Part shown: one piece after another, positions 55,229 through 56,344 of the stretch | How the letters are laid out: every line of letters begins with the position of its first letter | Position numbering within the stretch: the first letter of the stretch is position 1 | Assembly: GCA_003345595.1 (NCBI GenBank) | Contig: PRDI01000049.1 | Span: 29,780-93,779 of the forward strand | DNA from: Candidatus Thorarchaeota archaeon | GTDB taxonomy: Archaea; Asgardarchaeota; Thorarchaeia; Thorarchaeales; Thorarchaeaceae | Direction of reading: 5' to 3' | DNA: 64,000 bases | Notes under the pieces: generated by a model | Database searches by the model: none | Seen by the model: only the letters and a program-made list of their open reading frames with translations | What the model was told of the DNA's origin: nothing | Translations under genes and position numbers: made by a program

Positions 55229-56042
55229 TGTGAAGAGCGGCGATATCGTTGTCCCAGGAGACCGCCTATGTGTCATTGAGGAGCTGTCGCCCAGCGATGG
55301 CACTTATGAGAAAGAGGGAATTGTCTATGCCGCTGCGTCTGGGGGCGTCCATATCGATCTGAAAGACCGCAGCGTAAAGGTTCTCGACCATGGTGGAGCC
55401 ACAAGGATTGCGCTCCCAGTCAGAGGCGATATTCTGGTAGGTGAGGTCGTAAATGTGTATGAGCAGCGGGCAGAGGTCAGTCTAGTGAAACGCAACGACG
55501 TGGATGTTCATAGCCCCTTCATTGGTGAGATACACATAAGCAACGTCACCCGCCGATACGTCAAGTCAATGCACGACGAAATCAGACTTGGCGACATCAT
55601 ACGTGGGATGGCAATGAACACACATTCAATACCAGTGCAGCTCACGCTTGTCGGGCCCAACTTGGGCGTCCTGCTCGGCAAATGCTCGAAGTGCGGCAAC
55701 CCGCTCACGCTCACCACTCACAACAATCTGGTGTGCCTGAGTTGCGAGAATCGAGAAACCCGTGAGGTCGCAACCGACTATGGTCAGAGATTCGGTCTAG
55801 AGCCGCGTCCTGACCTCGCGCCCAAGAGAAGGCCATATGATGAGCGACGGTACGACGAGGGTCGAACAGGCCGTGACCGTGAAGGCTATGGTGAAAGTCG
55901 TGGCCGGCGTGACCGTGAAGGCTACAATGAAGGCCGTGGTCGGCCTGGTCAGTTTCGCGAACGAACCAGAGGGTCGTCATACCGACCCAGTGACCGCAGG
56001 GGACAAGATGACGACGGGCATGCCAGAGGAAGGAGGCGTTAG
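55221..56042 (+). CDS. csl4: Exosome RNA-binding subunit Csl4 with an R/G/D/E-rich C-terminal tail
   Basis: VVPGDRL, IHISNV, GDIIR, LGVLLGKCSKCG...CLSC zinc ribbon. Confidence 0.92.
   Translation: MADVKSGDIVVPGDRLCVIEELSPSDGTYEKEGIVYAAASGGVHIDLKDRSVKVLDHGGATRIALPVRGDILVGEVVNVYEQRAEVSLVKRNDVDVHSPFIGEIHISNVTRRYVKSMHDEIRLGDIIRGMAMNTHSIPVQLTLVGPNLGVLLGKCSKCGNPLTLTTHNNLVCLSCENRETREVATDYGQRFGLEPRPDLAPKRRPYDERRYDEGRTGRDREGYGESRGRRDREGYNEGRGRPGQFRERTRGSSYRPSDRRGQDDDGHARGRRR
55872..55943 (+). repeat. Two tandem 36-nt imperfect repeats in the csl4 tail
   Basis: CGTGACCGTGAAGGCTAtggTGAAaGtCGTGGcCGG / CGTGACCGTGAAGGCTAcaaTGAAgGcCGTGGtCGG, encoding RDREGYxExRGR twice. Confidence 0.85.
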
Positions 56043-56044
56043 AT

Positions 56045-56344
56045 ACGGAGATAAAAGTCATTGAGAACACAAAGTATCAGTTGGTAGCCGAGATACGCGG
56101 TGAAGGGCACTCATTCTGCAATCTATTGCGTAAGACCCTCCTTGAAGAGGAGTCTGTGGAGTTCGCTGGCTACAACATCGATCACCCATTGCTTGCCAGT
56201 CCTGTGTTCACTCTGAGGACGAAGAGGCGCCAGGCAAATGTGGTTCTTAGAGAAGGCCTTGACAGGATGCTTGCAAGGACCGACGAATTTCGAAAGCGGT
56301 TTGAGCAGGCGGTTTCAGACCATGGCATCGACCAGAGCGCCTGA
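56045..56344 (+). CDS. rpoL: RNA polymerase subunit L (Rpo11); inferred ACG start
   Basis: GEGHSFCNLLR, FAGYNIDHPL; lies after csl4 as is usual. Confidence 0.93.
   Translation, partial: TEIKVIENTKYQLVAEIRGEGHSFCNLLRKTLLEEESVEFAGYNIDHPLLASPVFTLRTKRRQANVVLREGLDRMLARTDEFRKRFEQAVSDHGIDQSA

Follow-up and report, generated by a model that had tools for sequence, protein, structure and literature searches.

The rpoL locus

The window analysed here, that is the whole stretch of 64,000 nucleotides, contains a row of genes for a methyltransferase, the exosome subunit Csl4, the RNA polymerase subunit L (RpoL), an RNase III-like protein, TFS and PCNA. The coordinates of the features discussed below are compiled in Table 1. 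The stop codon of csl4 (TAG, 56040-56042) is separated by only 2 nt from an ACG triplet that we propose as the initiation codon of rpoL. The spacer between the Shine-Dalgarno (SD) core GGAGG and this triplet reads cgttagat, the triplet is followed by GAG ATA AAA GTC ATT GAG, and the frame ends at a TGA codon (56342-56344). Read codon by codon, the frame is devoid of ATG, GTG and TTG both from the upstream TGA (56009-56011) to the ACG (codons RRACQRKEALD) and from the ACG to the TTG at 56081 (T EIKVIENTKYQ), as the earlier note on this DNA had stated. No SD motif is seen before this TTG.

The protein read from the ACG is (T/M)EIKVIENTKYQLVAEIRGEGHSF. It matches the family RNA_pol_L_2 (PF13656) with 64.5 bits (cut-off 27) over residues 15-84. 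Alignments with solved RpoL/Rpo11 chains of Thermococcus and Sulfolobales (4qiw_L, 7ok0-type and 8cro-type chains) extend from residue 2-3 to approximately residue 90, and residue 2-3 of the query aligns with residue 2-3 of the chains. The ACG therefore takes the position of Met1. The sequence and the alignment with solved chains thus confirm the earlier reading of the locus, namely GGAGG, 8 nt, ACG and an (M)EIKVIE that corresponds to the RpoL N-terminus. The source assembly contains a single match to rpoL.

We note that the C-terminal tail of Csl4 (55800-56039, plus strand) is long, rich in Arg, Gly, Asp and Glu, and contains the near-repeat GRDREGYGESRGRRDREGYNEGRGR. Among the last codons of csl4, AGG AGG (Arg Arg) doubles as the SD site of rpoL; similar gene ends are found in relatives.

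Table 1. Positions of the rpoL start region, its neighbouring features and two further non-canonical starts within the window.
Feature	Position	Strand	Remark
csl4, exosome subunit, ECR1_N	55176..56042	+	putative 5' end = first canonical codon of the ORF
TGA closing the rpoL frame upstream, in frame	56009..56011	+	sequence reading
Shine-Dalgarno core GGAGG (AAGGAGG from 56030), within the last csl4 codons	56032..56036	+	8 nt 5' of ACG
ACG, proposed rpoL initiation codon	56045..56047	+	aligns with the starts of 28 relatives, with ACG again in G001, and with Met1 of solved chains
rpoL CDS, 99 codons + TGA, RNA polymerase subunit L/Rpo11	56045..56344	+	PF13656 and PDB RpoL matches
ATA, alternative near-cognate codon	56051..56053	+	14 nt from SD; sequence reading
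ATT, another near-cognate codon in the rpoL frame	56060..56062	+	sequence reading
TTG, first canonical in-frame rpoL codon	56081..56083	+	start there removes 12 conserved N-terminal residues
ACG at the hel308 Met position	19356..19358	+	ACG at the same codon in G003
ArsR-type regulator, probable CTG start at 37291-37289	37010..37291	-	CTG 6 nt after GAGGTG

The start codon of rpoL in related genomes

For comparison, 40 related genomes were searched for rpoL, and 29 loci were extracted. The codon aligned with the ACG is ATG at 21 of these loci, TTG at 3, GTG at 2 and CTG at 1 (genome G006). ACG recurs in G001, which was assembled separately from a sister species and whose RpoL shares 97% protein identity with that of the source assembly (G000). 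The SD motif, the spacer and the csl4 stop are identical in both assemblies, and the first 12 rpoL codons after the ACG differ only by an exchange of K to R and a single synonymous substitution. A start at TTG 56081 would remove 12 residues that are conserved across the family, with the pattern (M)-E/K-P/I-K/R-I/V-I-E-N/H-S/T-K/R-Y/F. Given the matching G001 sequence and the conserved N-terminal codons, neither an assembly error nor initiation at 56081 is likely. In relatives, the ATG, GTG or TTG of rpoL is preceded by an equal SD motif at equal spacing. The csl4 stop lies 2-6 nt 5' of the rpoL start, such that the SD motif falls within the end of the upstream gene; matches to csl4 are present at several of these loci.

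In G002 and G003, rpoL also has an ATG in frame, two codons 5' of its own TTG, and this ATG overlaps the csl4 stop (ATGA). At these two codons, G000 and G001 have TTA and ACG, that is, both canonical codons are lost. The ancestral rpoL start of the genus is therefore uncertain and, judging from these alignments, may be either codon.

A further variant is found in another genus of the family (G006, contig C18, locus L012), where the rpoL start position is a CTG behind TAGGAGG. The frame is closed by a TAG 5 codons before this CTG and offers no canonical codon.

Genome-wide codon usage at homologous start positions

The source assembly (2.73 Mb, 83% complete) was compared with about 2.66 Mb of G003, a species of the same genus with approximately 75-80% protein identity. 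BLASTP yielded 1260 pairs of stop-to-stop ORFs after removal of shadow frames. Pairs were retained if the first canonical G003 codon was located -6 to +2 codons from the start of the alignment, which left 578, and the G000 codon in this start column was read. The column holds a canonical codon (ATG, GTG, TTG) in 362 pairs, lies beyond an upstream in-frame stop in 40 pairs, and holds a non-canonical codon in 176 pairs. The commonest non-canonical codon opposite a G003 start is ACG (18/176; 13 opposite ATG, 3 opposite GTG and 2 opposite TTG), followed by GAG (10/176), GCG (8/176) and CTG (7/176); ATA occurs in 2/176, ATT twice and ATC once. The background frequency of ACG is 1.3-1.4% in the flanking columns of the G000 pairs and 1.3-1.7% over both directions of the comparison; against the upper bound of 1.7%, the binomial p-value is about 2e-9. 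A genome-wide excess of ACG at homologous starts, for which the earlier note had suggested to look, is hence found: 18/176 as compared to an expectation of about 1.5%, and 9 of 15 genes in the obligate set described below. Overall, ACG accounts for about 3% of the evaluable starts in G000. GTG and TTG are common among its canonical start codons, which comprise 120 ATG, 33 GTG and 24 TTG in the strict set defined below.

With G003 as the focal genome (n = 541), ACG again ranks first (11/148, p = 5e-5). The excess is modest and vanishes in the strict set (2/48) and in the obligate set (1/11), both defined below, and the ACG habit therefore seems stronger in the branch of G000 and G001, as far as codon counts can tell.

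Several controls were applied to the excess. A bias of mutation or amino acid exchange was assessed using internal ATG columns of G003 (n = 9014), in which the G000 codon is ACG in 68 cases, ATA in 180 and CTG in 306. In start columns opposite ATG the corresponding counts are 13, 1 and 2. The ratio of ACG to ATA is thus 13:1 at starts versus 68:180 internally (Fisher p = 1e-6). Likewise, ACG makes up 22% of all Thr codons of G000, versus 18 of the 28 Thr codons in start columns (p = 2e-6). Conservation around the start columns was also compared. For the ACG class, identity to G003 is 0.17-0.28 in the five preceding columns and 0.56 in the first two columns thereafter. Canonical starts exhibit a like step in amino acid identity, from about 0.2 to 0.64, whereas the other non-canonical columns show the gradual rise expected for shifted or misassigned starts.

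Two stricter selections were made. The strict set requires the first 10 residues to be ungapped and at least 60% identical. Its 244 G000 columns comprise 177 canonical codons and 8 ACG (8/55 non-canonical), with every other codon found at most 3 times. The obligate set is limited to genes that lack a canonical codon between the upstream stop and a point 4 or more codons beyond the start column; it consists of 15 G000 genes, of which nine have ACG and one has CTG.

An alignment-free test considered codons 6-10 nt after AGGAG, GGAGG or GAGGT at the heads of long ORFs. In this SD-anchored test ACG is not significantly enriched (odds ratio 1.26, p = 0.28 in G000; 0.99 in G003). The power of the test is low: even ATG is enriched only 4-fold, and cruder versions were noisy. 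Canonical starts behind GGAGG in G000 have a spacing peak at 7-9 nt. About half of the other ACG starts have an SD-like motif, not more often than canonical starts do. ACG starts show no preference for the vicinity of an upstream gene end (2/18, versus 54/362 canonical starts, within the validated but incomplete gene set). Translational coupling, i.e., termination followed by reinitiation, was considered as a cause of ACG tolerance and rejected, as the genome-wide association with upstream stops is absent. A scan for ACG starts common to G000 and G003 mostly returned short conserved leaders; the shared ACG of hel308 was identified manually.

Further genes with proposed ACG and CTG starts

Several of the genes in question can be examined individually. 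For example, the gene hel308, the second ACG case in the window, has ACG at the same codon in G003 (ACG CAT CTT GAT GAG, versus ACG CGT CTT GAC GAG in G000). In each genome the first canonical codon comes only after the Q motif. This second case is thereby borne out. We also observe that hel308 of G003 (contig C10, the orthologue of 19341-21593 in the window) has a deletion of 1 nt about 25 codons past the shared ACG, just before the LFPPQ motif; it shifts the frame and reflects either a true frameshift or a fault of the assembly.

For IscU (NifU_N), position 1 of the Pfam profile coincides with residue 1, and GGAGG precedes the ACG. The start codon is ACG in G000 and G002, ATG in G003, and ATG, GTG or TTG in eight other genera. 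In G002 a stop lies 7 codons upstream of the ACG and leaves no alternative start. Subunit D of the V-ATPase, also an ACG case, aligns with its G001 counterpart from residue 1. In sufS, the next canonical codon is found 32 codons downstream within the aminotransferase domain, and in dnaJ the next GTG falls inside the J domain. Further ACG cases are a phosphoribosyltransferase, a DUF371 protein and an RsmB-type methyltransferase.

A start at CTG is supported for three genes, coding for a CDP-alcohol phosphatidyltransferase, a membrane protein and the ArsR-type regulator, respectively. The first canonical codon of the CDP-alcohol phosphatidyltransferase is 47 codons into the gene, and a start there cuts the Pfam domain. 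For the ArsR gene, the CTG behind GAGGTG that the earlier note had put forward as a possible start is the probable one: G003 has an in-frame TGA one codon before the same CTG, and its next canonical codon is 31 codons downstream.

A separate observation concerns a gene on G000 contig C91 (779-1357, minus strand) and its G003 orthologue, which share the conserved membrane-protein N-terminus EVLKISAFGSKYFGWLAC. No canonical start exists for 19 codons in G000 and 29 codons in G003. The same column holds ATT in G000 and ATC in G003, and a CTG is also present in G000; by this comparison, the protein may start at AUU/AUC or at CUG.

Search for a dedicated mechanism

Rather than being tolerated mismatches only, ACG starts could be served by a dedicated mechanism. 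The mRNA might be altered so that ACG becomes AUG, or the lineage might possess a special initiator tRNA or a modified set of initiation factors. If so, this Asgard lineage would employ ACG starts deliberately, as a class of their own. We consider such a mechanism quite improbable. The tRNA genes above the Rfam cut-off (aragorn and Rfam) number 21 in G000 and 28 in G003, most of them with introns, some of which are unusually placed. In these incomplete and intron-rich sets, no clear initiator tRNA (A1:U72, GGG/CCC anticodon stem) was identified, nor was an initiator-like tRNA with a CGU anticodon. Two candidates were dismissed: the sole sound G003 tRNA that carries a CGU anticodon is a normal elongator, tRNA-Thr, rather than a special initiator, and a tRNA with A1 (G003, C16:41111) is most likely tRNA-Gln.

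Outside the window, contig C42 of G000 (minus strand; at about 3155, 12528, 25219 and 26105) harbors four copies of about 45 nt that resemble the 3' half of a tRNA-Met. They consist of an anticodon arm (GGG-CTCATGA-CCC), a T arm and an acceptor end, without a recognisable 5' half. These pieces may be remnants of attachment sites of integrated elements, or split or otherwise odd tRNA genes.

A DYW-type deaminase (PF14432) was not found in the 83%-complete G000, and 14 control genomes are silent as well. The initiation factor aIF1/SUI1 (PF01253) was likewise not found in G000, whereas each of the 40 relatives, including G001, has one copy; the gap is probably due to the incomplete (83%) assembly. 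A loss of aIF1 was rejected as the cause of ACG use, since G001 has aIF1 and yet the same ACG in rpoL. The aIF1 scores of this family are 57-71 bits, as compared to 64-86 bits, mostly 72-86, for other members of the phylum.

Proposed initiation at ACG and alternative explanations

The reading we favor is that rpoL probably initiates at the ACG at 56045 by near-cognate initiation. GGAGG, 8 nt upstream, would position the ribosome such that the ACG is placed in the P site, and ribosomes that terminate on csl4 two nucleotides away may contribute. The initiator Met-tRNA would pair with ACG through a C·A mismatch at the middle base, and the product would be a full-length RpoL beginning with (M)EIKVIEN. 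Three points are inferred from the sequence: actual initiation by the ribosome at the ACG, Met as the first residue, and a weaker expression than AUG would give. Such initiation is very probably common to the lineage rather than peculiar to rpoL, with ACG ahead of CTG and of AUA, AUU and AUC, to judge from the start-column counts. A relaxed start-codon selection in this lineage, as proposed in the earlier note, is the reading best supported by the excess of ACG together with its recurrence across assemblies.

Other starts within the rpoL frame were weighed against initiation at ACG. Translation might begin at the ATA at 56051, the third codon, or at the ATT at 56060, giving a protein shorter by 2 or 5 residues. 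Both are in frame and near-cognates of AUG, and the ATA is kept in G001. Moreover, initiation from ACG in E. coli reaches 0.1-1% of the AUG level, mostly with Met, and ranks below that from AUA, AUU, AUC and CUG (10.1101/063800). A rate of this order would be low for an essential polymerase subunit. Nevertheless, the SD motif is 14 and 23 nt from ATA and ATT, respectively, as compared to the peak of 7-9 nt behind GGAGG; genome-wide start columns hold five ATA, ATT and ATC taken together against 18 ACG; and the position of the ATA is CCA, CCC or CTA in relatives, that is, not conserved as a start. We therefore regard a start at ATA or ATT as unlikely. The TTG at 56081, the choice of gene finders, is the only canonical codon, and the Pfam domain would survive a start there, as the match to RNA_pol_L_2 begins at residue 15. 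The TTG has no SD motif, however, and the 12 codons upstream of it are open, and their protein sequence is conserved in G000, in G001 and throughout the family. The residues they encode align with the N-terminus of solved RpoL chains, and about 18 other genes have the same pattern, with the boundary of conservation at the ACG. A truncated RpoL is accordingly very unlikely.

The remaining readings concern the ACG itself. It could be edited from C to U in the mRNA, followed by canonical initiation at AUG, as in plant organelles, where C-to-U RNA editing makes AUG from ACG start codons. Plant organelles present a like genomic picture, with ACG in place of the ATG of relatives and far more often than ATA. 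To our knowledge, mRNA C-to-U editing is not known in archaea, our searches of the literature yielded none, and archaeal C-to-U editing is known only at a tRNA position. In addition, the contexts of the ACG starts, inspected by eye, share no upstream motif besides SD-like purine runs, and in 5 of the 18 start columns the ACG stands opposite TTG or GTG of G003. We hold editing to be highly improbable. The ACG might also not be read as a start at all, owing to a fusion of Csl4 and RpoL by a -1 shift before the TAG at 56040, a decaying gene, or an assembly error. Relative to csl4, rpoL indeed occupies the -1 frame, in which the 11 codons preceding the ACG contain no stop. Yet no slippery heptamer is seen by eye within 56012-56042, all relatives have an independent SD motif and start at the codon of the ACG, and rpoL is single-copy and intact. 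As to error, the G001 sequence is identical, and ACG starts in other genes are common to G002 or G003. The earlier note had held random error to be less likely; the recurrence of ACG at the same codon in independent assemblies, for rpoL (G001), IscU (G002) and hel308 (G003), excludes a read or assembly error. An unread ACG is the least probable of the readings considered here. We thus return to near-cognate initiation at ACG as the most plausible account of rpoL.

Relation to known start codons and implications

Eukaryotes and their viruses provide well-known instances of ACG starts, among them AAV VP2 and the Sendai virus C' protein. The present cases resemble these in having ACG at the initiator position of real proteins, with a presumed mismatch of the middle base to Met-tRNA. 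They differ in that the start is positioned by an SD motif, rather than by scanning and Kozak context, and in that essential single-copy genes would depend on ACG alone, whereas the eukaryotic and viral ACG adds an isoform as an alternative start. Archaeal start codons are described as AUG, GUG and UUG (review PMC7531240). Initiation as proposed here is likewise SD-led, and the start codon follows the SD motif at a distance of 7-9 nt, as in the archaeal and bacterial AUG/GUG/UUG set. In contrast to this set and to E. coli, ACG would lead the non-canonical starts in frequency, and it is kept between species. Archaeal near-cognates are also known from ribosome profiling of Haloferax volcanii, where about 30% of the putative alternative initiation sites are on near-cognates of AUG and were set aside by the authors (PMC7261190). 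Those sites are alternative or internal starts seen by profiling, whereas here ACG appears as the sole start of conserved genes by means of comparative genomics. Our searches of the literature yielded no paper on ACG starts in archaea or Thorarchaeota. That some archaea initiate at ACG is not yet established in print, and the genome-wide count with its controls is added here.

Standard gene finders accept only ATG, GTG and TTG. If our reading is true, they will truncate or mis-start about 3% of the genes of this lineage, including core genes such as rpoL, hel308, sufS, iscU, dnaJ and the gene for the D subunit of the V-ATPase, to the detriment of annotation, protein family alignments and structure prediction. 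The accepted archaeal start set of AUG, GUG and UUG would then be incomplete. An essential single-copy polymerase subunit on ACG, rpoL offers a convenient test case. Eukaryotes have their closest known relatives in the Asgard archaea, and the main eukaryotic near-cognate starts are ACG and CUG. The preference for initiation codons in an Asgard lineage would therefore, if true, bear on the evolution of eukaryotic start-site selection.
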